IMG/VR virus record: IMGVR_UViG_3300021197_001179
Coordinates: 372-64,371 of that record
DNA: 64,000 nucleotides
From: a virus
Taxonomy: Duplodnaviria > Caudoviricetes
Direction: 5' to 3' (one strand)
How positions within the stretch are numbered: the first letter of the stretch is position 1; the number at the start of each line of letters is the position of its first letter. This document shows positions 25,534 to 60,105 of this stretch, in pieces. The notes under the pieces were generated by a model. That model was not told where the DNA came from. It saw only the letters and a list, made by a program, of their open reading frames with translations, and did no database searches. The position numbers and the translations under genes were made by a program.

Positions 25534-25724
25534 AGGATAGGAAAGTAAAGTGGGTAGGAAGAGATGGGAATACTAAGACGGGCAACTTTTTGGCTGTCGG
25601 ATACAAGGGTGATATAAATAACGGTTTGACCACATACGCAATTATAATAAGAGACTTAGACGGCAGGGCTTGTGAGCTTCCGTTCCCATCAATAAAATTT
25701 ATGACAGATGATACTGGACAATAG
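25515..25724 (+). CDS. hypothetical protein
   Basis: 69 aa bridging terminase and portal. Confidence 0.55.
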   Translation: MEHKGLKDRKVKWVGRDGNTKTGNFLAVGYKGDINNGLTTYAIIIRDLDGRACELPFPSIKFMTDDTGQ

Positions 25725-27996
25725 TCACAGCCTAGAAATAGTTTACGATAGACCTGATAGCTATTTCGACAAGAAAGAAATAGAAAAGAAGTACGGAAGT
25801 TTAGAAAACTGGTACGCACAGAATGTTCGCTTCATATCAGCTCACTACAATATTGCATCTAATACAGATGAGACTGCAAGAGAGGGGAGAGAGGGTGTTA
25901 AGCGTTGGGCTGAGATGACTCCGGTTGATCAGATTATAAACAACTACCGATACTTTATGGGTACGCAAGAGAACTTCAACTTTGCGTATTTAACTGAAGA
26001 CGATAAAGGCGGTGAGCTTCCAGCTCCATACGTAAAAGGCGAGCAGATATTTGAGCTGATGGAGTATATGCGTGGTGGAATCAGAAAAGTTATTAATTCC
26101 TCTAAGATTTCAGTAGAAAGCCTAGACCCATCTAAAATCTCTAAGAAGATGGAGAAGGTTCAAATGATTAAATTGAAAAAAGACCTTGCTGAGTTCTTTA
26201 ACAAAATGCAGTCAGAATATGGCATGGGGTTTTTTCCAGAAGGCATTGGCAACGATGTTGATATGGATGAAGCTATTGAAAAGGTTATGAAGTCTCCAAT
26301 AGATGACATGGAGGAGTATGGTCTTGATTTAATTAACGATATAGTAAACAGAAACAGATTAAAGGACAAAATGATGAGAGCCTTTACTGACTGTGCTATT
26401 GGAAGGTACTGTGGTGTTTATGTAGATGAGATGCATGGCAGACCTTACACAGAGGTAATTCCACCATACAATCTTATACTTGACTTTGGAAACGACTCAG
26501 ACTATAATGAACAAGCAGAATTTGTAGGATGGGTTTCTTTTATGACACCAGAAGAGATTAGCTATCGGTACGACCTTACAGATGAAGAAAGAAGCTTAGT
26601 TAAAGATATGTCAATTACAGATCCTGGTATTGGATTTGAATTACTCAATCACTACAATGGAGGTAGCGGTTCAGATGTAGGTTTTAATTGGTGGGGAGGT
26701 CCTAACGGAAACAATTACAGACAAGTTGCAGTGGTAACTGGTTTTTGGATTACAGAAGTTCCGGAAGACAAAAAGGTAAAGAAAGACAAAAAGGGAGGGA
26801 AGAAAGCTGCACCTATTCATGGTAATGATTCTGAACGTTACACTTATCTTAGAATAGACAGGGCTACTATTATTGGTAATGCCATCATAACAGATTACGG
26901 TCAAGACTACAATGTGGTTTATGACTCTATGGACCCTAGCCGACCAATGCTCCCTGTACGTACATTCATTCCTAACATGATGATGGGGATGAATCGTTCT
27001 GTTGTTGACAGGATGAAGAAGCTACAGGATGACATTGATGCTTATGAATACAAGATACGTCAGAACATAGGTAAAGACCTTGGTAAGGTTTACTTGATAA
27101 ACGGACATAAACTTGGAGAGGGGGATACAGTAAGAGAACTTGTAGCCAACTTGAAGAAGTATGGTATGCACGTTACAGATGGTTCGGACGGAGAAGACCC
27201 TAACGTGCTTGATGGGCAAAGAATGGTTGAGACTGTTGACATGACGCTTGATCAAAACGTAATCCGTTACACGCAGTTGATTCAAGAGAAGGAACGTATG
27301 ATGAAAGAAATCATTAACGCTTCTAAGGTGTCTATGGGTCAATTGACAAGCTATGTTGGTTACGGATCACAACAACAATCTATTAGTCAGAATCAACTAG
27401 GGATGGCAACATTCTATGATGGCTTTATGACTTACTACACATACCTACTTCAGTATATAATCAACAAGGCTAAGATTATGTTGATGGATATGGATGGTGA
27501 AGAGGCTGCTGATGTTATGTTGTCTGAAGACGCTATAAAGTTCTTTAAGAACACTAGAGAATTTCAATTAGAAGACCTTATGGTTAAGGTTGACATTGAA
27601 GATGTAATTGATGATCAAGCCAGAACAAGACTACTTACTGTTGCTCAAGCTATGGCTCAAAATGTACAACAAACTGGTTTTGATTGGGATGACTACATTG
27701 AGCTTGAAACTGCACGTACTTATACTGAGTTGAAAGATAAGATGTCTATGAAGATTAAGAAGCGTAAGTTTAAGCAACAACAACAGCAACAAATGGCTAT
27801 GTTGCAGCAACAAGCTGAAGCCGAGAAGCAAAGACAGTTCGCAATGCAACAGCAGGAGATGGCAGAAGGCGGCAGAAACGCTAGAGAAGAAGCTAAACTT
27901 AGACAAAAATCAATGCAGCCCGTTGCTGATCAAGAGGCTCAAATAGTTGCAGATAAGCAGCGTCAAGAAGAAGGACTTGAAGGTCCGGCTGTATAG
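25708..27996 (+). CDS. portal protein
   Basis: 762 aa after terminase, SVVDRMKKLQD, Gln-rich C-terminal coiled coil. Confidence 0.85.
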   Translation: MILDNSHSLEIVYDRPDSYFDKKEIEKKYGSLENWYAQNVRFISAHYNIASNTDETAREGREGVKRWAEMTPVDQIINNYRYFMGTQENFNFAYLTEDDKGGELPAPYVKGEQIFELMEYMRGGIRKVINSSKISVESLDPSKISKKMEKVQMIKLKKDLAEFFNKMQSEYGMGFFPEGIGNDVDMDEAIEKVMKSPIDDMEEYGLDLINDIVNRNRLKDKMMRAFTDCAIGRYCGVYVDEMHGRPYTEVIPPYNLILDFGNDSDYNEQAEFVGWVSFMTPEEISYRYDLTDEERSLVKDMSITDPGIGFELLNHYNGGSGSDVGFNWWGGPNGNNYRQVAVVTGFWITEVPEDKKVKKDKKGGKKAAPIHGNDSERYTYLRIDRATIIGNAIITDYGQDYNVVYDSMDPSRPMLPVRTFIPNMMMGMNRSVVDRMKKLQDDIDAYEYKIRQNIGKDLGKVYLINGHKLGEGDTVRELVANLKKYGMHVTDGSDGEDPNVLDGQRMVETVDMTLDQNVIRYTQLIQEKERMMKEIINASKVSMGQLTSYVGYGSQQQSISQNQLGMATFYDGFMTYYTYLLQYIINKAKIMLMDMDGEEAADVMLSEDAIKFFKNTREFQLEDLMVKVDIEDVIDDQARTRLLTVAQAMAQNVQQTGFDWDDYIELETARTYTELKDKMSMKIKKRKFKQQQQQQMAMLQQQAEAEKQRQFAMQQQEMAEGGRNAREEAKLRQKSMQPVADQEAQIVADKQRQEEGLEGPAV

Positions 27997-43184: not shown

Positions 43185-46100
43185 ATGGGTTTTGAAGGCA
43201 CAGTAAGTTACGATGAGTTTGGCATTCCAATTAAATCAAAAGCTGAAGAAGTAGCTGTTGATGAGTTTGGCATTCCAATAAAAAAAAAAGAAGAGACCGA
43301 AGTTTCCAAATCCCCTTCACAAGATGGAGAATCAGAATTTACAGAGCCTGAGACAGGAGTAGATGAGTATGGAAACGAAGTAAGTTTACGCCCTGGTTCT
43401 GAAGAACAAAAACCCTTCTATGCTCTTGATGAAGAAAAGTACAGGGCAGAAAAAGATTCTGAAGAAGAAGAGGTTGAGCCTACCGGACCTACCGGAGCTA
43501 CCGGAGCTGATGGTGCTTATCAAGATGAGGGCGCATATGGTGTTGCCGTCACCCCAACTGGTGCTGCTGTAGATTTAGACCAGCCTTATTATAGGGAACA
43601 AGATAAGATTAGACGAGAAGTAGCAAGTAATCAATCCGTTTTTGGTATTGATAAGCCAGACGAAGATCTTCGTAATTACACTGCTATACCTTTACCTGTA
43701 GACGTTGAAAGTAATGAAGATGTAAAAGGCTATTTGAGTTCTCAGGTTGGTGATGTTCAAAACCTAGTAAATAGGGCATTATTAAACCCACAAGAATATG
43801 GGTATCCTGAAAGACTATCGTCTGCAAGCGAAGAAGACATTCAGACTCTTGTAAATGAGATGTGGAAATTTTCATCTCCTAAATTTGAGTCTTCCTCTGT
43901 TTCAGGACAGACACCATATGGGGTTTCCGTAGAGACCGAAACACAACCACTTCCTTTAGATTCTCAAGGAGATAACTTTATAAACCTTGACGAGTCTTAC
44001 TTCAGGAATGTAGCAAGAAAGGCTATTGATGATTACACTAGTTTATTTGAAGCTAATAGGAATAATGAAATTTTAGAGGAGTCTGTTAGATATTACTATG
44101 ATAACGGCTATGCTCCAGAGGCAATAATGGGATCCTTATACAGAGATCTTTCATTGCAGGATGTCGAAAAAATGCCCCAAGAAGAAAGGGATTTGTATGA
44201 TAACGTTGTAGAGCTAAAGAATATATCAGAACAACTAAACTCTTCTTCAAAACAATCTACAAAGAACGCAGGGCTTCAAACAAGGTACAATGACCTATTG
44301 TTAAAAAACAAAAGTCTAAGAAACACAATAGGAAAAGATAGAAAGCCTCTTTACAACATGCTTACAGGTAAACCTGTTGATAAGCTTGATGGCAATTCAA
44401 TGAACCTGTCATTTGCAATAGAAGATGCAAAGGAGAAGCTTACGTATGAAGATAATATAGAAGACTTATACATTAAAGCTTCTTTGGCTTCTAATGAGAA
44501 TATAAGTTATGGTCTAAAAACCAAGAAAGACATTAAGATACCATTGTCTGATATAGACTCTAGGGCTGCAATAAATTACTTGGAATCAAAAGGATACAAG
44601 AGAAAAAGTGCTGGTTACAGAGTTGTCGGATTTGATCAGGTTTCTCTTTCTGACGTAGCTAACTTTAGCGTAAGAGGATCAATTAATGAAGAATTATCTG
44701 AAGAGGCAGAAAGGTGGCTAGACAGGAATACTGATTTAATGGTTGACAGGATAGCCGCAAGAGATATGTCGTTGCTCAATTTAGACCCAGGTAAGTACAG
44801 AAAAGAACAAATTACACTGCCTATTTTGGGTGATATATACCCAACAAGGATGGCAGAAGTTATTGGAGAGGAAGTTCTTCCTAAAGGGATGACTGAAGAG
44901 ATAGGGCTGTCTGATGTAAAACTTGTGGATAGCGCAATAAGACAACTCAAAAATAGCGGAATTAGTCTTACGGAAAAACAAGAAGAAAACGCAGAGAGAA
45001 CTTTCGGATTAGAAGTTCAAGAAGGAGTGTCGGCTTTCGCCCCAATGTTGGTTGAACTGGCGGTGTTGAATAAAGCCGCTGGAGCGTTAAAGGTGGCTAG
45101 TGGATTAGACAAAGTACTTAAAGCGTATAAAGCAGGGAACAAATTTCAAAGGGGTACAGCAATATTAGCAGATGCCATTATTGAAGAGGGGACTATGCAG
45201 GTTGCCGGATTACAGCCCGGTGCTGGAGCTTCTTTTAGCATTATGGGTAATCGCCTTAGAAAGTATGGATTAGATAAGTTTCCTCTTAAATTTAAGGGGG
45301 AATTTGCTAGGATAAACAAGCTTGCAGATAGCGTGTGGAGCAATTCAATGACGGGTGCTGTTACCATGGAGTTTGCCTCTAATGTAGAAGCTGCTATAGA
45401 GGACATTATGGGTGGAGAAACTATGCAGAACCACTTTGAGCAGAATTATTCAGATTTATCTGAAGTTGGTAAAAGAGGCTTAGTAAATGCCTTTGTATTT
45501 AACATAATTGGAGGTAGAGGTTTAGTCGGAAAAGGTAAATCCGGATTCAGAATAAGAAGAATGGAGGAGGCTCGTGATGAGCTTCAACGTAAGGGACATA
45601 ATTCAGAAGCTAAAGAATTAACAAATTACATAAACCAATACTACGCAGGTAAGCCGGGCAAATCTCAGAATCTTTCATACAACGATATGAAATTATTCGT
45701 TGATAATATGCCTGAAAACGAATCTCAAACATTTACAGTTTCATCTCTTGAAGAGGTTCCTGAAGAATTTAGAGATAGAGTAAAAAGAGAACTAGAAGTT
45801 GAGAGGGAAGTTGATAGAACTTTCTTAGGTATTCCTTTGGGCAAAAAAACAACTAAAGAGGGAATTGCATATTCTTACGAAGTTACAGGCAAAGAAATGC
45901 GTGAGTACTTGAGTAAGACACAAGGAGAAAAAACTGATTCTGAGTTTAAAGACGATTTCAACAAATCCGAAAGAGAAGTAATGCGTAGGGAGTCTGTAGA
46001 AAAAGAGCCTACCGCTGAACCAAAACCGGAACCACCAAAAGAACAAAAAGATGATACGAAAACTACCGAACAAAAAACAAATCTCAGAGAAATAACAAGC

Positions 46101-49100
46101 GAGGAAAGAAAAGAAAGCGTGTTGCCTGAACATGACAACTTAGGTATGTCAGATAAAAAATTCAAGCTGAAAAATGAATCATCCTTTGGGGATAAAGGAT
46201 CTGTTGGAGTGTATGTAGATCCAGCTAATGGGTCAGAGGATGTGTTTATGGTTATCCCTGACAGAACTGATGACTCAAATTATATTGGGTATAAAAGAGT
46301 TTACGAAAACGGAAAGCCAACAAATAAGTTTTCTATAAAAGCAGAAATGTCAAACTCTAAAAAGGGTGACACAAAAAAATCTTTTCAAGCCGTATCAGAA
46401 GCACTCCCCGAAGGTCATGTTTTAATTGAAACAGAAAATATATCTTCAGATGGGTTGATTCTTTGGTCTAATCAAATAAAAAACAACTACTCACCTACTG
46501 GCAACGTGTTTGAGGTAGGCGTTAATTTAGAGGGTAAGAAAGTAGTATTGGGAGGTACACGAAGTACGGGAAGTTTCTCAAAGGGCAATTTTACGGAAGA
46601 AGAGTCGGTAAAGGCTGAAAAAGAACTTAATAAACTTATTGAAAATATAGAGGGGGCAAAGGTTGTTAGAAAAAAAATATCACCACCTGGAACGCCTAAT
46701 CTATACCACTTTAGATTAACGCTTCCTGAACTAAAAATAGATGATACGAAAACTACCGAACAAAAACTTGTGGAGGCTGGTGAGCAAGTCAGGGAAGAAC
46801 CTGGGCGAGTTCAAGAGCCGGAAAGCGGCAGAGAAGAGGGAGAGACAAGTGATGTACTTCAAAAACAAGAAGAAGTAGATATTGAAGGAGTAGAAGGAAA
46901 AAAGGTAACCATTTCCGAAGACCATCCTATAGACGAGTTAAATCTCGATCCTGATAGGTTTCAGTACAAGGTAGAAGGCTTAGAGGAAACAGGAGCTACA
47001 GGCTCACTAAAAGGGGTAAGACAATTTAACAAAGAACTAGCAGGAGTTGTTTTAGCTTGGAAAGACCCAGCAGATGGCAAGACTTATGTTGTTAACGGGC
47101 ATAATAGGGTTAATCTAGCAAAACAAACTGGTACAGATGTTATTGATATACGATATATAGAAGCTGATAACGCTCAAGAAGCTAGAGCTTTAGGAGCTTT
47201 AACAAACATAGCTGAAGGCAAAGGAACAGCTTTAGATGCTGCTAAATATTTTAGAGACACTGAAACCACAAAACAAGAATTAGAAGATTTAGGGCTACGC
47301 ATAACAGATAAAATTGCTAACGATGGAATATCTTTATCTAATCTTAGTGATAGACTTTTTGATTTAGTGGCTCAAGGAAAGGTAACAAAAGAAAGGGGAG
47401 TAATCATTGGTGGTAAGATAACAAGCAAAGACGTTCAGGAGCAGGTGTATAAGATGATTACACCAAAAATGACCAATAAGCATTTATCTGAGATAGCAGA
47501 CATGGCTGAAACTGCTCCAAAAGAAACAGCCACAGAGCAGACTCTTTTTGGAGAAACGGAAACTGAGAAAGCAGCTATAATTGAAAAAGCAAAGTTACTG
47601 TCTGATATACGTTCTAAATTAGTTCGTGATAAAAACATTTTTGGTAACGCAGCTAAAAATGCGGAGAGATTAGAAGAAGCTGGAAATAAAATAGCTATAG
47701 AAGAAAGTGCCGACATTAGTAAAGAAGCAGCAACAGTTCTTGGTGTGTTTGATGCTATTAAAAACACAACACCGGAAATAACACAAATAATTAATAACAC
47801 GGTCAAGGAATTAAAAGATGAGAAATCAAGAAAAAAGAGAAAAGAGCTTACAGAGTCAGCTTACTCAAGAATCAAGGAAGCCATACCAGCCGCTATCAAA
47901 GGAGTCGAAAGAAGTAGTGTCCAAAGAGGTGAAGAAGTACCTAAAGATACTGGAGTCGCTAGGGCTGAGAAAGCCGAACCAAAAAAAGTAACTAAGGAAA
48001 AGCCAACTGAATCAGAGATTGAACTAGCTCAAGACCTTCTTAGTGAAATAGAAGCTGAGAAAAAAACCAAAGATACCACACCAAAAACTGAACCTGCACC
48101 AAAAGAGGCTGCTCCTGATGCTAAAACTCAACCCAACGAGCTTTATAAAAAAGTTACGGCTGTTGAGGGTGACCTTAAAGAAACAGAGTATCAGATACAA
48201 GGAAATTCTGATGTTATAAAGAAACGTGGAGGAATTAAAAACAAAAAAGGGGAAGAAACATTTGACAACGGACCAAATACCTTTGAATCAAGATTTAAAG
48301 ATAAGTTTCGTGTTAAAGATCCTGCTTTTGGAGATGCAAGAAATTTAGCAAGAGCAAAGGGCGCAGGGACTACGGGTAAGGTTGTTTCGGACATTAAAAC
48401 AATTGACGGTAAGAGGTTCCTAAGGCTTGCGTTTAATGGAGGAGACACAAGAGGAGGAGCAGCCGCAGGGGTAACCATAAAAATACCTGAAGGTGTTGAT
48501 GTAAAAGTATTTAGCGGCATACATAAGAAAGCGTTTCAAGAGGCAATAGATAAAAATATTGCAGACCCAAAAAACAATGAATACGACAAGGCATATTCTA
48601 CGTATGACTTTATTATGAAAGAGAAGCAGATAATGGCTGACATGAACAAAGCCAAATCTGCTCAAATTTCTAAAATAAAAAAATCCAATGAACCTGTTCC
48701 CGTTAAGGAGAAGCCAGTAACTACCCCTAAAGCAGAGCCTTCCGCACCTAAGATAACTTCAAATGTATCTCTTGGTGTAAGGGGGACTTTGTTTGAACCA
48801 GATAGACCTCTTATTGATAAAGGTGATAAACCAGCTAGACAAATTGATCATATAGATGAATTTGGCGAAGAATATAGAGAATACTACCCAGCATTTGCCT
48901 GGGGACCAGAGTATGGTCCATATAACAAAACCAAAAATGGAGATATATCTTCACACGTATGGTCAAATATTGCAGGTAAACCAACCTTAATTCTTGGTGT
49001 TGTGGGTCCAGAAATGAGAGAGGTTGGAAGACCGTCTTCTGTAGGAACGGTTTTTACTTTTGAAACCGTAGCTGATGCTAGAAAAGCTCAACCTAAAATA

Positions 49101-52100
49101 GAGCAAGACTTTAGAAAATTACTTAAAAGATTTGAAGATAAGCTTAAAGAAGGTCCTAAAGGTTTCGCCCTGCAAGAAGATGTTGCTCCTGTTATACATA
49201 AATGGGCTACGCAATACACAAAACGAAATAACGAACCTGCTCCTAAAGGAGATGTGCCTCAATTTAGAAAGGCAAAGCCCAAAAAGCTAAAGTGGACTAA
49301 GACCGTGGAGAAGTCTATGGCTAGTTCTCCAATTTCAAAGAGAGATGAAACTCTTAGAAAAGCAGTTGTTGATTTAGTTGAGGGTAAGTTGACAATGAAT
49401 GAATTTAGGGAAATTCAGGACAGAGTTTCTCCAACAGGACCAATCGAAACATTCTTCGGTGCTATAACAGAAGCCAGAGCAAAAAGAGCTTTGAGAAAGA
49501 CGCAAGCTGAGAAGTACGGAGACTTCTCTCAGCTAAAAGAAGGTGATTTTGTAGAGGGAAGACTTGATATTCCAGCATACTTAGCTAAAAATGCATGGAT
49601 AGATTCCATACACGAATACAGCAAGGCAACAGGTAGAGCAGGTAAGCCAATATCATACTTACCTGCAATGTACTTTTCGGGAGGGAAAGATGGAAAGGTT
49701 GTGTTTTCTACAGACCCAAGAGATGCCATCAACATAGCTTCTGGTGCTATTCCAAAGTCAACCATAGCCAGAGTTCAGGGCAACTATAAAAAAGTCCCTG
49801 GGGAATGGAATACAATGGATGAAATGGGTAAAGCTGCTGAGAAGTTTTTTGAGCAGGAAATATTCAATAATCCAGAATGGAGGCAAATGGGTATGAATCC
49901 ATTTAGAAGGTCTGATTTTTGGGATAGAGAAAACGGAAGAAGTGTTGAAAGTGCCGATGAAGTTTTTATGATCGGAGGTCTTGTGTATGGAAAGAACATT
50001 GAGTACTCTACCAAATCAAAACTGTTAGAAGATCAAGGAATTGCACTTGAAGGTGCTTTTGGGGTTTCTCAGATAAAATACATTTCTGTTCCAAATCAAA
50101 TAACAAAAGAGGGATTGTTCAAACAGTCTGAGTTGGACGATATTGAATCAAAGACTCCGGAGTTATATCAGGAAATAATAGACCGTAAAACTGTAAACAG
50201 AGATGGAAAAATAAAGTACACTCTAAACATGGTCAATCCTGATGGCAGTAAAGGTGGTCTAAAAATATTAGAAGAAAACCATCCTGACATATACAAAAGG
50301 GTTAAGCCTCTGTTTACCACATTTGTTGGAAAAGGAACTTCTCCTCTACTTGATTCTGAAGGGAACGTAGTAAAGTTTAGTAAACTGCCTATTGATAAGG
50401 AGGGTGTTGAAGCAAGAAAGACTGATGAGACTGTCTCTAATGTGATTGACAACATGAATAGTGTTGAACTCGTCAACGAAGGTGTTGAAGTAGGTAAGCC
50501 GAAAACCACTGACAAAAAGATAGACGTTAAGGCTCTCAACAAAAGGGTTGCGAAGCCATACGAGATTGTAAAATGGGAAGACTTTGAAGGGCTTCCTTTT
50601 GTGTTTACTATAACCGATGCCCTTACAACTGGAAATACAAAAAACCCCAACACAGGAAACACCATAAAAAACCTTTACGGTGGAATCGGATTTACAAACA
50701 GCAAGGGCAATTTAGGAGAAAACGCATGGGCAAGCGTAACTCCAACAGTTAGCGGTAAGTACATTGCAAACGCCTTAGAAGTATACGAAAACAACAAGGA
50801 ACAACTTGATAGGTGGTGGGCTGATAATCCTGAGTACAACGGTCTTGTTCCTATGGCGGTTGTTAAGATGGGTCCAGACGGAATAGTTTCCAACGAGGCA
50901 TTGTTCCGGGTAGCTAATGATAATATAAAGACTCACATCCCACCAGCCAATAGAAAGGCTGCGTTAACAGCCCTTGTGGGTACTGTAAATGCAAGAATAG
51001 CTCAATTAGAAGAGGCTGTCAATAAAGGCAGAACATTAAAATCTTTAGCAAACGAAAAAGCAGGTGAAAAAGTAGAAGGAGGCAAAGCCACTAAGAAAAA
51101 CATAGAGAGCTACGAAAAGCAAATAGGTCAAAACAAAGCCATACTGGATGTTGTAAAGAAAAATAAGATAACCAAAATTGACGGACTTCTTGACACCCTT
51201 ATGGAACTTCCTTTAGGGACAAGGGCTATCGTTTCTAAAAATGTATTCTATGGTGACTTTAAGGCTGAGAAGCCTGGTAAACCAGGAAAGGATGTGGCAA
51301 TAGCTTTATTGGAGGGGCTTGATGTTGATGCAAGAAAGTACATTAACATTAAGAGTCTAGCTGAAATAATAGAGGAAAAATCATTTAGTGACATACCTGA
51401 CTCACACATTGTATCTATTGTAGGAGTTGACGTTCTAAACCCAAAAATAAACGTCACGACAAAAGGTAAACAGATTCTGCGAGAGGATATAAAAAGGTTC
51501 AATAAAGAGGGTAAAAAGGCTGAAGCAAAAAGGCTTCAAGAAATACTTGACAATGCAGGTAAAGCCATACATCCTAACTACCCATTTGCAGTACCCGGCA
51601 GATCCATCGGTATTCTTGAGTCTCCAGTTCACATGGGAGATGCTTTTGCTGAAGCATATGCAAGTGCATTAGCTATAGTCACCAAGAACGAAGCAGAACA
51701 AAAAGCAATAAAAGAAGCTTCTGCTTTAAAACAAGGAATACCGGTTCAAATGGGACTTCCAAACAAAGCTTTTAGAGGTGCTATTGCAAGAACCAAATCA
51801 ACTGAAGTTGACAAACTAATCAGTTTTGCAAACAGGGCTTTCCCTTCTGCAAATGTATTTACATCTCCAGAAGCTTGGGAAAGGATTATGAATCGTCCTA
51901 ATGTCCGAAAAAGGGTTGTTGACGGAGAGACTGTGTATGGACTTACAATCCAGGGGGATATTTATCTCAACCCCAAGTTCAAGGAGTTCAACACACCTAT
52001 TCACGAGTACGGTCACCTTTGGGGGGACATGATTGAGGCTGACAACCCTGCTTTATTTAATAAAGGTAAGGAGCTTGTAAAGCAAACAGAAGCTTACAAG

Positions 52101-55100
52101 AGAAACCTGAAAGAGTCAGAGGAAGTTTACGGTAAAGGAACCAGAGAAGCCGAGATGGATGCTGTTAAAGAAACAATGGCAGAACTTATAGGTGATAAGG
52201 GTGAGAAAATAGCCAACGAAAGTGTAAAACAAGGTTGGAAAGAATGGTTACTTGGTCTTTGGAAATACTTGCAGTCTAAGTTTCCAAACCTTAAATCATT
52301 GACATTAAAGGACATAGAGAACCTTACACTTGACCAATTCCTTGGAGGTGCTTTGAGAGACATTATGTCTGGTAAAGAAATAACTTTTAAGAAGTCTAAG
52401 AATAAGTCTCCTATGAAGAGGAGTGCAAAGGGTGCTAACGAAAATATTTTTGCAGAAAATATTGAAGCAGCTTTAGCAAAAGGCGCATCTCTTGAAGCAA
52501 TAAAGGAAGCGTACAAACGAAAAATAAGACAGGAAAATGTTGGCAATCCTGCTGAAATATCAAGGCTTACAGTTGAGCTTGAAAAGGCTATTGCTCAGTT
52601 CAGCAAAAAGCCATTGGTTGGAAAGAACACACCGACAGACCTACAAGATAAGCTTGGTATTGAGTTTAAAGATGGCAACAAGTTAGAGGTTAACAGAAAA
52701 ACTCTTTCTTCTTGGGTAAACAACACATTTAAGAAAGGTTATTCAGCCGGAGCCAAAGACGAGAGAACCAAAAAGGCTGAAATCAATCGTGTTAAAAAGA
52801 GCATTGAAAATCAGATTGCATCGCTATTGAATACAATGGTCAAAGCTCAAGGAAAGGGATTAATATCAACTCAAAAAAGTCTTGCTATAGTCAATAAGTT
52901 CAGGAAGACAAACCTGTTGAATCCAGATTCAGTCGAAAGATTTGTATCATACTTTGATAATGCGCTTACAAAAGCTGGCTATGTAAAGAAAATAGCTGAA
53001 GCAAACGATTTAAGAAAAAAGATTCGATCAAAGCAAAAAGACGAAAAGGTAGATGTTGCCTTAACAGACGTTGCAAAGAAGTTTACAAAAATAGACCCAA
53101 ACAAGCTGTCTGACATAGATGAATACATCGAAATAGCTAAGAGTGTATTAAATGGTGTAAGTAAATCAAAAGCGGGAAAAGACGGTATTAACTGGAGGTC
53201 TGCTTTTGACATAGACAAAGTAAATAACTACTTGGAATCAAAGTTAAAAGACCAAGAGGAAGAAGCTTTGTCAAGGATGGAAGAGAAGTTTATGAAAACG
53301 TTTGGCATTGACCCTGAAGGTAAGTTCACCAGACAACAGATGATGGAGGCTCTGAAACAAATAAAGGACGAGTCTCTTGATAGAGCCAAGGAAACCAAAA
53401 TAAGAACGGAAGCAGTTAATGTCTTTAACACATACAAGGCAATAATTGAAAGAATGCTTTCAGATAAAGAAGACCCGTTTTCTTTTCCAAAGACAGGTAT
53501 TCCAAGTGTTGACCGAAACACAGAGAAGCTAATTACAAGGTTCGTAAACATGGACCCGAAAAGGCTTGAGATTACTGATTTGATTCAAGCCGTAGATGCC
53601 CTGAATAATTTCTTGGTTAATCAAACAACCGGAGGTCTTGAGAAGATTGTAAGTAGATACGAAGGAGCTACGGGAGTGGAAAGCCTGGTTTTAAAGAAAA
53701 AGATAAAAGCAATTCCGATTAGACTTGGAAGCAAGTTTATAGGTAGAGCAGTAACTGAGAAGATATCTACAATCCCGGTGATGCTTGAGCAAATGTTTGT
53801 TGGTTCAAGAAAAGCTTTAGTTGTTGCAGAAACCTCCGGTTATAGCGATATCTCTGAGGGCAATGCTGCTGCTCTTAAAAACACAGAGAAGGTAAGAGAC
53901 TTATACATAGACAAGTTCAAAAACAAAAAACCTAATGGAGAAAAATTCTCTAGCGCAGCCAATATAACGGAAAGAGGAATGCTTGCCTTTATGATGAGGT
54001 CTACATTAGACAACAATCCTGATAAAATACAGGACACGTTTGATCGAAGAAAAAACCTTATGAAGGAAAACATAGAGGTTTTAAAAGAAGCTATGGGACC
54101 AGAGGGCAGTAGAAACAAGACAAATGAAAAGCTGTATGATCTTTACAAAGAAGCATACGACAAAATCCTTGAGGGTTCCGACAATATTTCCGAGGTACAA
54201 TCAAAAACAGACCCAATTAACAAACAAGCCGTTGATTTTTGGGTTGTAGAGTTCAATAAGATACTCCCTAATTTACAAGCAGTTTCTACAAACATCTACA
54301 ACAGTGAGCTTGTATTAGAGAAATATTACAATCCTGATATTTACAGGACATTAGAACGTACAGGTGGGCAACAATTAGAGTATGATGAATCAAAAGGGTC
54401 TTTCAATGATTTAACATCGGGCATTTACGAAAAGAAGAGTCCAATGATGATTCGGGTTAAAAAGCCAACTAGATTGCCTAAAGAAAGGTACATAAGCCTT
54501 GAATTTGATTTGAATAATATTCACGCTTATGAAGCTGCTTTGGTTGACATCAACACTGCCACCGGTATCCAGGTATATTCTGGGTTTGTAAACAACAAAG
54601 CGTTCTTTAATAAGCTTATCGAAGACCCAAGGGATAGGACTTTGTTCCGGACACGTATGGAACAATACATGCGAGACATAAGAAACAAGAACTACATTAA
54701 CGACCCTTACGGCAGAAAAGTGGTGGAATGGACTGACTTTATATCTAGGGTTGGTACTACACAAGCTCTGGGGGGATTAACTCAGGCTCCTAAACAGTTT
54801 ATTCCTGTAATGGTAAACACTGCCATAAATGCTGGTACTTTAGATTTGAATGTCTCAACATTGTTTAACCCTGATGTCATTGAGGCTATCGCAAATTCAG
54901 GGATGCCAATCGCTAATAGAGGAATAAGGTCTCAGACCCAAATAGAGGGGATGAGAAAACAGCTAAGAAATCTAGCTGCTTTCGAAGGAAACAAAGCAGA
55001 AAAAGCTGTAAAAAATATACAGGATTTCTGGCTTGAGACGTTCCTGAAAAAGCCTGATGTGTTGGCGGCACAATCATCTTTTATCACTTACTATAAAAAA

Positions 55101-56432
55101 GAGCTTAAAAGGCTTGGTTACGATATAAGTGACATTCAATGGAAAGACCATAAATGGAATAAGAAAGCTGCTAGATATGCTCAACAAATGGTTGATCGCC
55201 AGCAAAATGTATCGGACCCGGAAATGATGGGGACATTCCTTACTTCTAAGGAAACAACCAATATTTTTCTCAGAAAGGTCTTTATACCATTTCAGTCTTT
55301 TGTTTTGAATCAGAAGTCTAGAATGTATGCTGATTTAACCGTGTTGAATAAGGGAGGTTCTAATGAAGATAAAGAAGCAGCAGCACGTTCTCTTGCAGGT
55401 TTACTAGCTGAATTAAGTATCTTTTACATGCTTGGCATTTGGTTTACGGAATTGTACGAAAAGGCTGGTAAATATATTGCTGGATCTTATGGGTTTGGAG
55501 AGAAAGAAGATGAGGATGAAATAGTCAGAAAGATGAACGAGGAGTATGACAACAGGGCTTGGTGGATGAAAACAGCAAGAAAGGTTTCTACCTCTTTAAC
55601 CACAGATATAATCTCTCCTTTCCCCCTTGTAGATGACCCTATAAAAATGGGAGTCAATGAGCTTATTGAATTGACAAAACCAGAGACATCTACTCCTTAT
55701 GAAGAGTACAAAAAAGATTTGGAAAAACTCTCAGACCCAATTGGAAAGGAGAAGGCTGAATTAGCTCTTGGTTATTTAAAAGTTCAGATAGAATCCACGA
55801 GGGACATTTACCCGGAATCTTACAGATTGCAAATGCCTGTTTATGAAAAGCTTTTAAAAGAGTATGAAAATAACGACACAAAAAAATACTCAACAACTAG
55901 AAAAGAAGCTGAAAAGGCAATGAGAGACTTCCAACAAGGGGAAATACCTTTCTATTTGTATGAGCGTAGGACTGATGAACTTTTAAACTCACTTGGTGTG
56001 CTTGGAATAGGTGCTAAATCATTCACCAAAACTTTTGAGACATTCGACATGATTGACGGTGAGTTTGAAAAAGAGTACATGGGGACTAAAAACAAGATGA
56101 AGATTCAAGACCCGGACGGAAATCTACCTAAACTTATGATGGAAACTGGGGCAATTCAAATTGCAACTGCATTTTTTGGAGGAAAAGAAATCGCATCAGT
56201 TGCCGACAATGTGATTAAAGAAGTTAAAAAGGGCGCAAAAACTGAGGGTCAAATCAAAACCGAAAGAATAGAGGAGATAAAGAAATACATTCTTGAAGAG
56301 AGTGGTCGCGAAGATGATGTTCAAGATATATACAAGGAAATGTTACAGCTTTCTAAAGAAATATATTCAAAACCATTGATTGAACTCACAGACAAAGAGT
56401 TTAAAAGAATAGACGCAATGGTAGACTACTAA
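43185..56432 (+). CDS. giant polyvalent virion/ejection protein (ParB-like, zincin HExxH, possible GNAT-like module)
   Basis: 4415 aa; DPDRFQYK..YVVNGHNR; NTPIHEYGHLW; Pro/Glu/Lys linkers. Confidence 0.8.
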   Translation: MGFEGTVSYDEFGIPIKSKAEEVAVDEFGIPIKKKEETEVSKSPSQDGESEFTEPETGVDEYGNEVSLRPGSEEQKPFYALDEEKYRAEKDSEEEEVEPTGPTGATGADGAYQDEGAYGVAVTPTGAAVDLDQPYYREQDKIRREVASNQSVFGIDKPDEDLRNYTAIPLPVDVESNEDVKGYLSSQVGDVQNLVNRALLNPQEYGYPERLSSASEEDIQTLVNEMWKFSSPKFESSSVSGQTPYGVSVETETQPLPLDSQGDNFINLDESYFRNVARKAIDDYTSLFEANRNNEILEESVRYYYDNGYAPEAIMGSLYRDLSLQDVEKMPQEERDLYDNVVELKNISEQLNSSSKQSTKNAGLQTRYNDLLLKNKSLRNTIGKDRKPLYNMLTGKPVDKLDGNSMNLSFAIEDAKEKLTYEDNIEDLYIKASLASNENISYGLKTKKDIKIPLSDIDSRAAINYLESKGYKRKSAGYRVVGFDQVSLSDVANFSVRGSINEELSEEAERWLDRNTDLMVDRIAARDMSLLNLDPGKYRKEQITLPILGDIYPTRMAEVIGEEVLPKGMTEEIGLSDVKLVDSAIRQLKNSGISLTEKQEENAERTFGLEVQEGVSAFAPMLVELAVLNKAAGALKVASGLDKVLKAYKAGNKFQRGTAILADAIIEEGTMQVAGLQPGAGASFSIMGNRLRKYGLDKFPLKFKGEFARINKLADSVWSNSMTGAVTMEFASNVEAAIEDIMGGETMQNHFEQNYSDLSEVGKRGLVNAFVFNIIGGRGLVGKGKSGFRIRRMEEARDELQRKGHNSEAKELTNYINQYYAGKPGKSQNLSYNDMKLFVDNMPENESQTFTVSSLEEVPEEFRDRVKRELEVEREVDRTFLGIPLGKKTTKEGIAYSYEVTGKEMREYLSKTQGEKTDSEFKDDFNKSEREVMRRESVEKEPTAEPKPEPPKEQKDDTKTTEQKTNLREITSEERKESVLPEHDNLGMSDKKFKLKNESSFGDKGSVGVYVDPANGSEDVFMVIPDRTDDSNYIGYKRVYENGKPTNKFSIKAEMSNSKKGDTKKSFQAVSEALPEGHVLIETENISSDGLILWSNQIKNNYSPTGNVFEVGVNLEGKKVVLGGTRSTGSFSKGNFTEEESVKAEKELNKLIENIEGAKVVRKKISPPGTPNLYHFRLTLPELKIDDTKTTEQKLVEAGEQVREEPGRVQEPESGREEGETSDVLQKQEEVDIEGVEGKKVTISEDHPIDELNLDPDRFQYKVEGLEETGATGSLKGVRQFNKELAGVVLAWKDPADGKTYVVNGHNRVNLAKQTGTDVIDIRYIEADNAQEARALGALTNIAEGKGTALDAAKYFRDTETTKQELEDLGLRITDKIANDGISLSNLSDRLFDLVAQGKVTKERGVIIGGKITSKDVQEQVYKMITPKMTNKHLSEIADMAETAPKETATEQTLFGETETEKAAIIEKAKLLSDIRSKLVRDKNIFGNAAKNAERLEEAGNKIAIEESADISKEAATVLGVFDAIKNTTPEITQIINNTVKELKDEKSRKKRKELTESAYSRIKEAIPAAIKGVERSSVQRGEEVPKDTGVARAEKAEPKKVTKEKPTESEIELAQDLLSEIEAEKKTKDTTPKTEPAPKEAAPDAKTQPNELYKKVTAVEGDLKETEYQIQGNSDVIKKRGGIKNKKGEETFDNGPNTFESRFKDKFRVKDPAFGDARNLARAKGAGTTGKVVSDIKTIDGKRFLRLAFNGGDTRGGAAAGVTIKIPEGVDVKVFSGIHKKAFQEAIDKNIADPKNNEYDKAYSTYDFIMKEKQIMADMNKAKSAQISKIKKSNEPVPVKEKPVTTPKAEPSAPKITSNVSLGVRGTLFEPDRPLIDKGDKPARQIDHIDEFGEEYREYYPAFAWGPEYGPYNKTKNGDISSHVWSNIAGKPTLILGVVGPEMREVGRPSSVGTVFTFETVADARKAQPKIEQDFRKLLKRFEDKLKEGPKGFALQEDVAPVIHKWATQYTKRNNEPAPKGDVPQFRKAKPKKLKWTKTVEKSMASSPISKRDETLRKAVVDLVEGKLTMNEFREIQDRVSPTGPIETFFGAITEARAKRALRKTQAEKYGDFSQLKEGDFVEGRLDIPAYLAKNAWIDSIHEYSKATGRAGKPISYLPAMYFSGGKDGKVVFSTDPRDAINIASGAIPKSTIARVQGNYKKVPGEWNTMDEMGKAAEKFFEQEIFNNPEWRQMGMNPFRRSDFWDRENGRSVESADEVFMIGGLVYGKNIEYSTKSKLLEDQGIALEGAFGVSQIKYISVPNQITKEGLFKQSELDDIESKTPELYQEIIDRKTVNRDGKIKYTLNMVNPDGSKGGLKILEENHPDIYKRVKPLFTTFVGKGTSPLLDSEGNVVKFSKLPIDKEGVEARKTDETVSNVIDNMNSVELVNEGVEVGKPKTTDKKIDVKALNKRVAKPYEIVKWEDFEGLPFVFTITDALTTGNTKNPNTGNTIKNLYGGIGFTNSKGNLGENAWASVTPTVSGKYIANALEVYENNKEQLDRWWADNPEYNGLVPMAVVKMGPDGIVSNEALFRVANDNIKTHIPPANRKAALTALVGTVNARIAQLEEAVNKGRTLKSLANEKAGEKVEGGKATKKNIESYEKQIGQNKAILDVVKKNKITKIDGLLDTLMELPLGTRAIVSKNVFYGDFKAEKPGKPGKDVAIALLEGLDVDARKYINIKSLAEIIEEKSFSDIPDSHIVSIVGVDVLNPKINVTTKGKQILREDIKRFNKEGKKAEAKRLQEILDNAGKAIHPNYPFAVPGRSIGILESPVHMGDAFAEAYASALAIVTKNEAEQKAIKEASALKQGIPVQMGLPNKAFRGAIARTKSTEVDKLISFANRAFPSANVFTSPEAWERIMNRPNVRKRVVDGETVYGLTIQGDIYLNPKFKEFNTPIHEYGHLWGDMIEADNPALFNKGKELVKQTEAYKRNLKESEEVYGKGTREAEMDAVKETMAELIGDKGEKIANESVKQGWKEWLLGLWKYLQSKFPNLKSLTLKDIENLTLDQFLGGALRDIMSGKEITFKKSKNKSPMKRSAKGANENIFAENIEAALAKGASLEAIKEAYKRKIRQENVGNPAEISRLTVELEKAIAQFSKKPLVGKNTPTDLQDKLGIEFKDGNKLEVNRKTLSSWVNNTFKKGYSAGAKDERTKKAEINRVKKSIENQIASLLNTMVKAQGKGLISTQKSLAIVNKFRKTNLLNPDSVERFVSYFDNALTKAGYVKKIAEANDLRKKIRSKQKDEKVDVALTDVAKKFTKIDPNKLSDIDEYIEIAKSVLNGVSKSKAGKDGINWRSAFDIDKVNNYLESKLKDQEEEALSRMEEKFMKTFGIDPEGKFTRQQMMEALKQIKDESLDRAKETKIRTEAVNVFNTYKAIIERMLSDKEDPFSFPKTGIPSVDRNTEKLITRFVNMDPKRLEITDLIQAVDALNNFLVNQTTGGLEKIVSRYEGATGVESLVLKKKIKAIPIRLGSKFIGRAVTEKISTIPVMLEQMFVGSRKALVVAETSGYSDISEGNAAALKNTEKVRDLYIDKFKNKKPNGEKFSSAANITERGMLAFMMRSTLDNNPDKIQDTFDRRKNLMKENIEVLKEAMGPEGSRNKTNEKLYDLYKEAYDKILEGSDNISEVQSKTDPINKQAVDFWVVEFNKILPNLQAVSTNIYNSELVLEKYYNPDIYRTLERTGGQQLEYDESKGSFNDLTSGIYEKKSPMMIRVKKPTRLPKERYISLEFDLNNIHAYEAALVDINTATGIQVYSGFVNNKAFFNKLIEDPRDRTLFRTRMEQYMRDIRNKNYINDPYGRKVVEWTDFISRVGTTQALGGLTQAPKQFIPVMVNTAINAGTLDLNVSTLFNPDVIEAIANSGMPIANRGIRSQTQIEGMRKQLRNLAAFEGNKAEKAVKNIQDFWLETFLKKPDVLAAQSSFITYYKKELKRLGYDISDIQWKDHKWNKKAARYAQQMVDRQQNVSDPEMMGTFLTSKETTNIFLRKVFIPFQSFVLNQKSRMYADLTVLNKGGSNEDKEAAARSLAGLLAELSIFYMLGIWFTELYEKAGKYIAGSYGFGEKEDEDEIVRKMNEEYDNRAWWMKTARKVSTSLTTDIISPFPLVDDPIKMGVNELIELTKPETSTPYEEYKKDLEKLSDPIGKEKAELALGYLKVQIESTRDIYPESYRLQMPVYEKLLKEYENNDTKKYSTTRKEAEKAMRDFQQGEIPFYLYERRTDELLNSLGVLGIGAKSFTKTFETFDMIDGEFEKEYMGTKNKMKIQDPDGNLPKLMMETGAIQIATAFFGGKEIASVADNVIKEVKKGAKTEGQIKTERIEEIKKYILEESGREDDVQDIYKEMLQLSKEIYSKPLIELTDKEFKRIDAMVDY
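46049..46766 (+). repeat. 28-bp direct repeat pair
   Basis: AGATGATACGAAAACTACCGAACAAAAA at 46049-46076 and 46739-46766. Confidence 0.95.
46741..46878 (+). CDS. nested out-of-frame 45-aa basic protein
   Basis: MIRKLPNKNLWRLVSKSGKNLGEFKSRKAAEKRERQVMYFKNKKK; A-rich context before ATG. Confidence 0.7.
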   Translation: MIRKLPNKNLWRLVSKSGKNLGEFKSRKAAEKRERQVMYFKNKKK

Positions 56433-58189: not shown

Positions 58190-58879
58190 ATGGGATGTAA
58201 TTCATGTTCAGACATAACTCTTCCGGGCGTTGCTGGATCACAAGGTGCAAGTGGAGAACAAGGGTCTCAAGGACCGATAGGTAACACCGGACCTGCTGGA
58301 TCTTCTGTTTCTGTAATAGAAATAGACACATCAATAGTTGCTAGTAGAGAAAGTAATTACCCTACTAGCCCAAATAAGAGGGTGTCAATTCCGGCAGATA
58401 CTTGGAAAGTTGTTGATGACATGGTTGAATTAGAATTGATGTTTCAAACAAGCGGAAAGTACACTCCTGGATCAGAACCATTTATGAAGGTTGAGTTAGG
58501 TGGTTTTCCCGTTAAAATCTATTGCGGAAACGTAAACAACGAGATTGCATTTAGATCAGACATGGCTATTAGGGGTGGTCAGAATCAGATTGTTAAAATG
58601 AAGATTCAACTTCCTATGACTGATGCTGGCAGTGTTATGCCAATCCTTGAGACATCTGTATATGCCGGAACGTCAGCAGGTACAGAAAAATTTAGTTTGG
58701 CTTATGACACATCTTCACCCATAAGTTCATCGTATGGTCGTTGTGATGCCACTACGGGTCTTACTTTAAATAGTTCAATTGACTTGGACGTTTATATGAA
58801 AGACACTTACTCTGGAGATAACCCACAGTCATTTAATATGATTTACTACAAGCTCCTCTCTTATAAGAAGATAACATGA
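58190..58879 (+). CDS. collagen-repeat tail protein
   Basis: MGCNSC then Gly-X-Y repeats. Confidence 0.7.
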   Translation: MGCNSCSDITLPGVAGSQGASGEQGSQGPIGNTGPAGSSVSVIEIDTSIVASRESNYPTSPNKRVSIPADTWKVVDDMVELELMFQTSGKYTPGSEPFMKVELGGFPVKIYCGNVNNEIAFRSDMAIRGGQNQIVKMKIQLPMTDAGSVMPILETSVYAGTSAGTEKFSLAYDTSSPISSSYGRCDATTGLTLNSSIDLDVYMKDTYSGDNPQSFNMIYYKLLSYKKIT

Positions 58880-60105
58880 TTGAATCAAAAAATGTAATAG
58901 ACCTGACCACAATAGCGTCAGGTACGATAAACATCCCTGTTGAGAACACTGTACCGCCAAGTTGCGTGTATGGTGATACTTCTAATTACTACAGGGTAAC
59001 TGCGACTTCTGAGGTAACACTTACGGGTAACTTAACTTTTGCGGCATTAGGAACTCCTACTGCCAATACATTTGTTAAATTTTACTTTGAAAAGGCTATT
59101 ATAGTAGGGTCTAACTCAGTTAACATTTTCGGAACGGACATAAATGCAATTGCAGGAGTAAGTTTGGCTGGTGAGTTGTTCGGAACTGGAGTTAATGATC
59201 CATTAACTGTAGACTGTTTGTATAATTCAACTACGGCATCGTGGTCTGTGTCAGTTAACGTAAATTTTGTAGCCCCAAGCACTCCGGTAATAACGTCTAA
59301 AATAAAAGACGCTGCTGTTACCACAGCCAAGATTGCCGATCTTAATGTAACAACCGGTAAGCTTGCTGCATCAGCAGTAACCCTAGCTAAAGTTCAAAAC
59401 GTAGCTGCTAACTCTGTGTTGGTTAGAGACGCTAACTCTTCAGGGGTACTTACAGAAAAGGCTTTGGCTACCACACAGATTCTTATCGGTGACGGCACAG
59501 GCTTTACTGCTGCTGCACTTAGTGGGGATGTTACAATGACCAATGCAGGTGTTGTAACACTTGCGACTAACTCAGTTGTTACTGCTGACATTACAGATGC
59601 TAATGTTACCACAGCTAAACTTGCTGACGGTGCGGCTACTCTAGCAAAACTAGGAAGCACAGGAAAGCTTGCAAGTGCTTACGCTGATGTAGGTACTCCT
59701 GCATCAACAGTAGAAACGACATTGTTCACAACGACTCTTGCAGCATCTCAATTAGCTGCTGACGGAGAGTCTGTAAGGATGACCGCATATGGTGAAACTG
59801 CTGCGAATGCAAACACCAAAACTCTGAAGGTTTATTTAGCGTCAAGTGTTATCGCTCAAAACAGTACCACAACAGCACCTAATGGAAAAAACTGGAAAAT
59901 TGTTGCTGACGTAACTAGGTCGGGAGCAACTTCTGCCGTAGAGCATGTTTCAATTGAATTTGATGGGGTAGCTGCTGAAATTGACGTAAGTAAAGTAGGA
60001 GCAACTTGGTCTAATGCTAATGATTTATTTGTTACTGGAACCAACGGAACAAGTGCTGCAAACGATATTATATTAAAACAAGTAATTGTAGAGTACATTA
60101 AATAA
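58876..60105 (+). CDS. tail fibre protein
   Basis: VTTAKIAD-type repeats, LSGDVT. Confidence 0.75.
   Translation: MIESKNVIDLTTIASGTINIPVENTVPPSCVYGDTSNYYRVTATSEVTLTGNLTFAALGTPTANTFVKFYFEKAIIVGSNSVNIFGTDINAIAGVSLAGELFGTGVNDPLTVDCLYNSTTASWSVSVNVNFVAPSTPVITSKIKDAAVTTAKIADLNVTTGKLAASAVTLAKVQNVAANSVLVRDANSSGVLTEKALATTQILIGDGTGFTAAALSGDVTMTNAGVVTLATNSVVTADITDANVTTAKLADGAATLAKLGSTGKLASAYADVGTPASTVETTLFTTTLAASQLAADGESVRMTAYGETAANANTKTLKVYLASSVIAQNSTTTAPNGKNWKIVADVTRSGATSAVEHVSIEFDGVAAEIDVSKVGATWSNANDLFVTGTNGTSAANDIILKQVIVEYIK

Follow-up and report, generated by a model that had tools for sequence, protein, structure and literature searches.

A probable old phage gene nested out of frame within the giant structural-block gene of marine phages

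The locus described here raises the question of whether one short segment of phage DNA codes for two proteins at the same time and, if so, which of the two frames is the older. The segment lies in a 64,000-nucleotide stretch of a virus record (Duplodnaviria; Caudoviricetes; IMG/VR record IMGVR_UViG_3300021197_001179, positions 372 to 64,371), which in its whole length is called the window and whose positions are used throughout. A small open reading frame (ORF) is found there inside a giant ORF, in another frame of the same strand, and the DNA that both share is referred to as the cassette. The three features are:

43185-56432, plus strand: giant ORF of 4415 amino acids, in a structural gene block (judged from its PHROGs region and the neighbouring genes)
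46740-46880, plus strand: dual-coding cassette, giant residues 1186-1232, acidic and rich in E, G and Q in the giant frame
46741-46878, plus strand: nested small gene, 45 codons and a TAG stop, in the +1 frame of the giant ORF

We consider it highly likely that 46741-46878 is a functional overlapping gene, which codes for a 45-residue basic beta-beta-beta-alpha protein of an old and widespread phage family.

An earlier note on this DNA, made from the letters alone, had placed an ORF with its peptide in the +1 frame of the giant ORF, and translation confirms this: positions 46741-46878 on the plus strand read MIRKLPNKNLWRLVSKSGKNLGEFKSRKAAEKRERQVMYFKNKKK*, with a TAG immediately 5' of the ATG, and the same segment in the main frame of the giant ORF reads DDTKTTEQKLVEAGEQVREEPGRVQEPESGREEGETSDVLQKQEEVD. 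The small protein is strongly basic, with a net charge of about +13, and the giant-frame reading of the cassette has a net charge of about -10 (both counted by hand from the translations). The note had also described the main frame here as a featureless linker. This holds insofar as the main frame reads as an acidic stretch that need only stay open. In length by itself the small ORF is within chance, ranking 9th among the stop-free runs and 4th among the ATG ORFs in the +1 frame of the giant gene; its homology exceeds chance.

A word-indexed search of 5.8 billion proteins gave three matches, all of them small (47-54 amino acids; best E 1.5e-7), and an exhaustive search of 1.84 billion representatives gave 191 protein clusters at E<=1e-3, with a best value of 5.2e-10. 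The stand-alone homologues that the earlier note had suggested looking for therefore exist, and its assignment of the peptide to a family of small, stand-alone basic phage proteins is borne out by these clusters. Its pattern, MIRKL..(W/Y)RL.S..KNLG.F.S..AA.K.ER.V.YFK, agrees with MIRKLxxKxxxRLxSKxGKNLGTFxSxxAAxKRERQVxYFKH, the consensus of 26 aligned sequences. Among these, the peptide of the window is 45-68% identical to the 25 others, and it keeps the MIRK start as well as all of the near-invariant residues S15, G18, L21, G22, R33, F40 and K41. What the earlier note overlooked is that the family has a second group of members: besides the free proteins of about 44-75 amino acids that start with MIRK, a module of 40-45 residues is found in frame in many large phage proteins, at the N-terminus, at the C-terminus or internally, in carriers of up to 1473 amino acids.

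The distribution of the two groups was followed in viral contigs. A scan with an eight-sequence alignment gave 599 pattern stretches and at least 384 confirmed loci; 80 loci were kept and classed by the ORF that runs from the first ATG, GTG or TTG past the upstream stop:

28 of 80 loci: free small ORF of 42-79 amino acids
50 of 80 loci: in-frame part of an ORF of 134-1007 amino acids
2 of 80 loci (L008 and L011): nested in the same way as in the window

In deposited genomes, a free member is the 67-amino-acid protein of Stenotrophomonas phage RAS14, and Aeromonas phage 1233 has a free-standing family ORF that is unannotated. A translated search (tblastn) with the peptide matched 176 phage records, mostly of Klebsiella, Enterobacter, Cronobacter and Citrobacter phages. 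In the Klebsiella phage KP15 and its relatives the module forms the C-terminus of gp57B/Acb1 (Pfam Acb1, E 2.1e-47), the anti-CBASS phosphodiesterase of KP15-like phages. At the KP15 locus (L001 955-1578, equal to NC_014036.1 99630-100253) the module follows the Acb1 match at residues 15-159. Domains in other in-frame carriers include Phage_Mu_F, His_Phos_1, Zeta_toxin/AAA_33, ParB_N, Amidoligase_2 and lysozyme, and further NT5C, a cytidylyltransferase-like domain and DUF5661. For the 45-residue peptide itself, Pfam and PHROGs gave no match at E<=10; among 59 family members none was matched by NCBIfam, no Pfam match was credible, and nine were matched by phrog_3684 (function not assigned), the window peptide not being one of them. 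The family is thus without a Pfam or NCBIfam model and is partly covered by phrog_3684.

Two side observations concern the family. One is a recurrent protein of 247-250 amino acids (L012, L014, L015, L017, L019, L020, L022, L029, L036 and L052), which carries the module near its N-terminus, followed by a conserved FFKH(L/F)D(K/H)SKADD...IDLT.ADEFSYSA; some of these contigs are 267-481 kb long. The other is a free 46-amino-acid member (L073 3064-3192) that lies antisense in a 789-amino-acid stop-to-stop frame, an overlap that could be due to chance in GC-rich DNA (context GC 0.57).

The structure of the small protein was predicted with AlphaFold2 from a 59-sequence alignment (pLDDT 91.3, pTM 0.65). 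In the predicted model, strands at residues 2-5, 10-14 and 20-24 are followed by a helix at residues 27-44, so that the protein can be assigned with confidence, on the model, to a compact beta-beta-beta-alpha fold.

The nested arrangement itself is conserved. Loci L008 and L011 have an intact ORF of 44-46 amino acids in the +1 frame of open frames of 2918 or 3329 amino acids. The cassette starts at giant residue 1186 in the window, 1116 in L008 and 1286 in L011, and in a BLASTP comparison (E<1e-3) of the window giant with these two giants it is the only similarity that they share. An exact DNA pattern scan of viral contigs found the L008 and L011 contigs only, and the subfamily protein scan did likewise. 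A search of metagenomes with the subfamily alignment gave 24 confirmed loci, of which 19 were examined, L108-L112 (partial matches of 47-69%) being left out; in L106 and L107 the match is confined to residues 22-44. With the small protein of L011, as the first sequence, taken as reference, all 14 metagenome loci at >=75% identity (L089-L102) are nested in the same relative frame, with every small ORF intact in the +1 frame of open frames of 2425-3875 amino acids. Including the window this makes 17 nested loci and 14 unique DNA versions, and both frames are open in all 17. Neither a lack of homologues nor stops in the +1 frame, the two signs that the earlier note had named as speaking against the gene, was seen; 14 of 14 versions are intact.

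Which of the two frames is under selection can be read from the position of the substitutions, which were counted in the 14 unique sequences at 42 aligned codons. At small-frame positions 1, 2 and 3 at least 22, 11 and 41 changes are needed (14, 7 and 33 without the window), and Fitch counts on a FastTree tree are 25, 18 and 60 (chi-square against equal numbers, p 4e-7; position 3 against position 2, p 2e-6). Amino-acid identity is higher in the small frame than in the giant frame in 91 of 91 pairs. The frame-specific dN/dS comparison that the earlier note had proposed gave, as Nei-Gojobori (NG86) pN/pS summed over pairs, 0.24 for the small frame and 1.54 for the giant frame, two values that serve as a contrast and not as estimates, since standard dN/dS is biased in overlaps. 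As a control, changes at giant-frame positions 1, 2 and 3 were counted in the 13 giants other than that of the window, over gap-free columns:

upstream flank, 60 columns: 86, 86 and 110 changes
cassette, 41 columns: 33, 14 and 7 changes
downstream flank, 227 columns: 307, 246 and 452 changes

The flanks show the normal pattern for the giant frame, in which third positions vary most, and in the cassette this pattern is reversed, with about one third of the changes per codon found in the flanks. The cassette is also the peak of the identity profile among the 13 giants (0.68-0.73, against 0.01-0.48 elsewhere). The contrast between the frames is qualitative and unambiguous, and the small frame is under purifying selection.

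The giant frame leaves its own mark on the small gene. Codons that end in T make up 24.7% of the codons in 20 unique free-standing genes, 0.95% in the 14 nested versions and 0 of 45 in the window, and it is because the nested copies avoid such codons that the giant frame stays open. An open giant-equivalent frame is found in all 14 nested versions and in none of the 20 free-standing genes, in each of which it has 1-8 stops; the giant protein is therefore really read through the cassette. The same avoidance accounts for the base composition, as the GC content is 0.47-0.48 at the small gene and about 0.38 over the whole giant gene. A recent foreign origin, which this local rise could suggest, was considered and rejected: GC at third codon positions (GC3) is 0.70-0.89 in all nested copies, in genome contexts of GC 0.37-0.45, and in the free-standing genes it follows the context (GC3 0.14-0.78; context GC 0.30-0.57), so that recent transfer is not needed. 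The earlier note had gone further and suggested that linkers in giant proteins may systematically hide real genes, and to this the giant gene of the window lends no support. Among its 18 alternative-frame stop-free runs of at least 38 codons, only that of the small gene is without T-ending codons, the signature of dual coding, and the longest alternative-frame ATG ORF (57 amino acids, 47818-47991) has no homologue.

Another question is how such an arrangement arose. The family is much wider than the nesting, and we therefore infer that the small frame is the older one and that the giant reading, the so-called linker, is the younger, overprinted frame. This agrees with the proposal of the earlier note that a free-standing small gene had been absorbed, which is supported by the complete copy with its own ATG and stop and, by inference, by the wider family. 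In a clade of marine phages the small gene lies wholly inside a structural-block gene of 2400-4400 amino acids, one base out of frame. In the mechanism that we propose, the giant protein is translated straight across it, giving an acidic, linker-like stretch whose sequence can change at will provided that it stays without stop codons, and the small protein would most likely be made from its own conserved ATG, behind an A-rich unstructured start without a Shine-Dalgarno sequence, as for most genes of the phage. Most likely the giant frame came to cross a small gene that was already there, for instance when a stop codon was lost and the flanking genes fused. Such a stop loss and fusion across a free small gene would be viable at each step, and stop-codon loss and gene fusion are among the routes of overlap origin listed in the available text of PMC2268670. 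Two compensating frameshifts of an in-frame module are a possible route too, which needs a deleterious intermediate.

One further option is that the nesting itself has a function. The basic small protein (about +13) could bind the acidic giant stretch (about -10) that is coded by the same 138 bases and made from the same message, and so be loaded onto, or released from, a giant virion or ejection protein; in other giant phage proteins that are otherwise hypervariable, the most conserved linkers might then owe their conservation to a second gene. If this were true, the small protein could be, for example, a DNA-binding partner that is delivered with the genome. We regard this extension as unlikely.

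The start region of the small gene bears on how its protein is made. The presumed initiation region is:

46716-46740, plus strand: presumed internal initiation region, A-rich and unstructured, without a Shine-Dalgarno sequence

The 41-nucleotide segment from -25 to +15 folds with 0.0 kcal/mol, compared to a mean of -4.7 (sd 2.8) for the giant gene, and belongs to its least structured 4-5%. All 14 versions share the sequence G-ATG-AT, even though a change to GAC would leave the giant protein as it is. In 13 of the 14 versions the nearest small-frame stop lies 0-8 codons 5' of the ATG (27 codons in L099); the window and seven of the 13 others, including L011, L089, L092, L093, L096 and L097, have it immediately next to the ATG. 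Most genes of this phage, to judge from the start contexts of about 40 of them, have A-rich leaders without a Shine-Dalgarno sequence, a pattern that suggests a host with Shine-Dalgarno-independent initiation, such as Bacteroidota. GGAGG-like motifs do occur at a few minus-strand genes, among them those upstream of 1680 and 6614. From these sequence features, independent initiation at the internal ATG is most likely the way in which the small protein is made.

A programmed +1 frameshift from the giant frame would instead give a product of about 1190 amino acids that ends in the basic domain, next to the full-length giant. Exactly this architecture is found in P0013, a 1070-amino-acid protein of a metagenomic cluster, in which about 1024 giant N-terminal residues are fused in frame to the small protein, followed by a stop, and many other proteins, too, have the module in frame at their C-terminus. 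A possible slip site, A-AAA-A, could be read by eye in the ACG-AAA-ACT of the window. This site was rejected for lack of conservation, since ACG-CAA-GTT takes its place in eight of the 14 versions, and no slippery motif is conserved among the 14. The ATG is kept throughout, and where a stop stands directly before it (8 of 14) any shift would have to fall inside the ORF. P0013 itself looks, from its sequence, like a deletion variant relative to L100. In its N-terminal region it shares 61% identity with the giants of L102, L094 and L089, and it has L in place of the invariant F40; besides a deletion variant, it could be a split gene or an artefact of assembly. Residues 995-1024 of P0013 seemed to align a second time in the small frame of L100, but this was a spurious extension of a high-scoring segment pair, no repeat of 12 nucleotides or more being present there. 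Frameshifting is in our view improbable.

Still less probable is a reading in which only the giant frame functions and the small ORF, not being expressed, is a relic or passenger, either a recently captured copy or a former in-frame domain that was frameshifted. The high local GC, which looks foreign at first sight, and the many in-frame copies in other large phage proteins would fit such a relic. Against it, 14 diverged versions keep the nesting, the ATG, the stop and the signature residues of the family, and changes are most frequent at the third positions of the small frame and rarest at those of the giant frame, whereas coding in the giant frame alone predicts the opposite. The GC argument also fails, as GC3 is high in all nested copies whatever the GC of the genome, due to the avoidance of T-ending codons.

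The conserved DNA could also be a nucleotide element, such as a recombination hot spot, a packaging signal or an RNA structure, with no second protein. The cassette is indeed the best conserved DNA of the region, and insertions and deletions cluster at its 5' edge, both in the window lineage and in L100 and L102. The lineage of the window is present in seawater and marine metagenome runs, and its variation centres on the following features:

46045-46076, plus strand: upstream copy of a 32-nucleotide direct repeat, with a truncated pseudo-start at 46051-46095 (MIRKLPNKKQISEK*)
46735-46766, plus strand: downstream copy of the repeat, covering 6 nucleotides before the ATG and the first 26 nucleotides of the small gene
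46049-46738, plus strand: segment of 690 nucleotides (230 codons), present or absent, adjoining the start of the small gene

The two copies are identical at 31 of 32 positions and lie 690 nucleotides apart. A 7408-nucleotide contig (X2) joins 46048 to 46739 and so omits exactly the 690 nucleotides between the repeats; its sequence is identical over 46739-47023, with no difference in the small ORF. The ORF is likewise identical throughout in the short X1 contigs, and X3 has no change in the 61 nucleotides of the ORF that it covers (46818-46878) and five changes just 3' of it, all at giant-frame third positions. Coverage by X4 and by the X1 contigs is incomplete, and the comparison is confined to the covered parts. 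Natural variants thus have or lack a 230-codon domain that adjoins the start codon, and the small ORF is intact in both forms. Other loci, too, seem to have their insertions and deletions concentrated just 5' of the cassette: relative to P0013, L100 is longer by about 70 residues and L102 by about 220. A nucleotide element, however, predicts neither a three-base periodicity in one frame nor a protein homology to hundreds of free genes with different DNA, and we give it hardly any weight.

Equally hard to credit is that the giant ORF is really two genes with a free small gene between them and an accidentally open main frame. The family is usually free-standing, and the small ORF has a start and a stop of its own. 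Against this, every nested version has the giant-equivalent frame open and every free-standing gene has it closed; the giant frame has no Met for several hundred residues past the cassette, and a phrog_21-like region starts only 14 residues after it.

Some results weigh against the reading that we prefer, a functional nested gene. The 14 versions are related (in the FastTree tree 13 of them group in a single subclade, with the window on a long branch), so the counts given above are not independent events, and the pN/pS values carry the bias already stated. The support for translation of the small protein is indirect, consisting of the conserved ATG and the unstructured A-rich start; the one RNA run listed contained 0.10 of the sampled words. 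Around the ORF, a sigma-70 scan gave one site against 1.5 expected, which is background, a terminator scan gave none, and no Shine-Dalgarno or promoter-like signal is prominent. P0013 means that a fused product exists or is tolerated somewhere. As to function, structural comparison of the model with VIA-align gave Z scores of at most 5.5 with no family prominent, the matches (dimethylformamidase, 5.5; DegV, 5.3; YaiA, 5.3; pieces of PH/FERM domains) being weak and non-specific.

What the small protein does can be suggested tentatively. Foldseek against the Protein Data Bank (PDB) found nothing at E<=0.001, a sequence profile search of the PDB found nothing significant (best E 1.2), and the ESM Atlas returned only unnamed clusters of 44-49 amino acids, labelled as hypothetical proteins. 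The N-terminal domains of the lambda integrase and the AP2/ERF domains are built, like the model, from three antiparallel strands and one helix. VIA-align gave Z 4.7 to 2gcc (the GCC-box binding domain) and 4.2 to 2wcc (the DNA-binding domain of lambda Int), scores that are no higher than those for unrelated beta-beta-beta-alpha fragments, and Pfam AP2 matched weakly in three of the 59 members (best E 0.031). One role that the small protein may have is nucleic-acid binding, possibly tethering proteins to the phage DNA for packaging or co-injection; we put its chances at somewhat less than even.

The giant protein and its surroundings can be described briefly. Giant residues 1246-1572 match phrog_21 (E 1.1e-60), the sole region recognised by PHROGs. 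Pfam gave no credible match on the giant protein, one at E 0.081 falling short of the cut-off, and an HExxH-like motif was read by eye from the translation. Two neighbouring genes were placed:

25708-27996: portal gene, upstream of the giant ORF
58876-60105: tail-fibre-like gene, downstream of the giant ORF

Close relatives were not found in these searches: a nucleotide search (blastn) of the giant region against phages gave no match, a protein scan of viral contigs for relatives of the giant region confirmed none, and tblastn of the portal protein against the phage collection gave no match. At the start of the giant gene there is a 31-nucleotide tandem-like repeat (43212-43242 and 43260-43290, 48 nucleotides apart), in which DEFGIPIK is repeated, and this N-terminal repeat region resembles the N-terminus of P0013, with 48% identity over 71 amino acids.

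Small genes inside larger ones, on the same strand and in another frame, are known from lambda Rz/Rz1 and from phiX174 (B in A, E in D, and K). In these pairs both genes are maintained, and the inner one is translated from its own internal start; the two are functionally linked, or else the inner gene is lineage-restricted and is thought to be overprinted. The locus described here is similar in that the inner ORF lies wholly within the outer one in another frame, both are intact and the inner one is under purifying selection. It differs in that the inner family is probably much older than the nesting, that the outer frame seems free to drift and that the host gene is a virion-block giant of 2400-4400 amino acids. 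In the usual case of overprinting a new protein arises inside an old gene; here the old protein would be inside and the novel frame would belong to the outer giant. A codon-usage test for the ancestral frame would mislead in this case, because dual coding has distorted the third positions of the small gene.

In the literature, as far as the available text of these papers goes, the two frames of overlapping genes are treated as being in adaptive conflict on one DNA (PMC8227390, PMC6195259, PMC2268670). The overlapping-gene papers, to the same extent of text, are general work with nothing on this small family or on nesting in giant phage proteins. The polyvalent proteins, described for phages and conjugative elements, are very large multidomain phage proteins, and the in-frame carriers of the module show domains of the kind described for them (Iyer et al. 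2017, PMC5512222, main text). Polyvalent proteins have several effector or enzyme domains; the window giant has its one PHROGs region and no credible Pfam match. The main text of that paper contains no mention of "overlapping", "frameshift" or "out of frame"; its supplements may name the module.

For phage biology the finding has several meanings. Standard annotation drops embedded ORFs, so that the small gene is invisible in all 17 loci, and this is the most conserved DNA of a gene of 7-13 kb. The locus offers a comparatively supported case from a double-stranded DNA phage in which the inner gene would be ancestral and part of the outer one overprinted, the reverse of the usual order. It also provides a signature by which further cases may be sought, namely an inner frame nearly without T-ending codons together with a reversed codon-position pattern in the outer frame. 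Beyond the nesting, there is a very widespread and unnamed beta-beta-beta-alpha module (as predicted), at no fewer than 384 viral-contig loci, that occurs fused to Acb1, MuF, zeta-toxin-like kinases and enzymes of nucleotide metabolism, and what it does deserves study.

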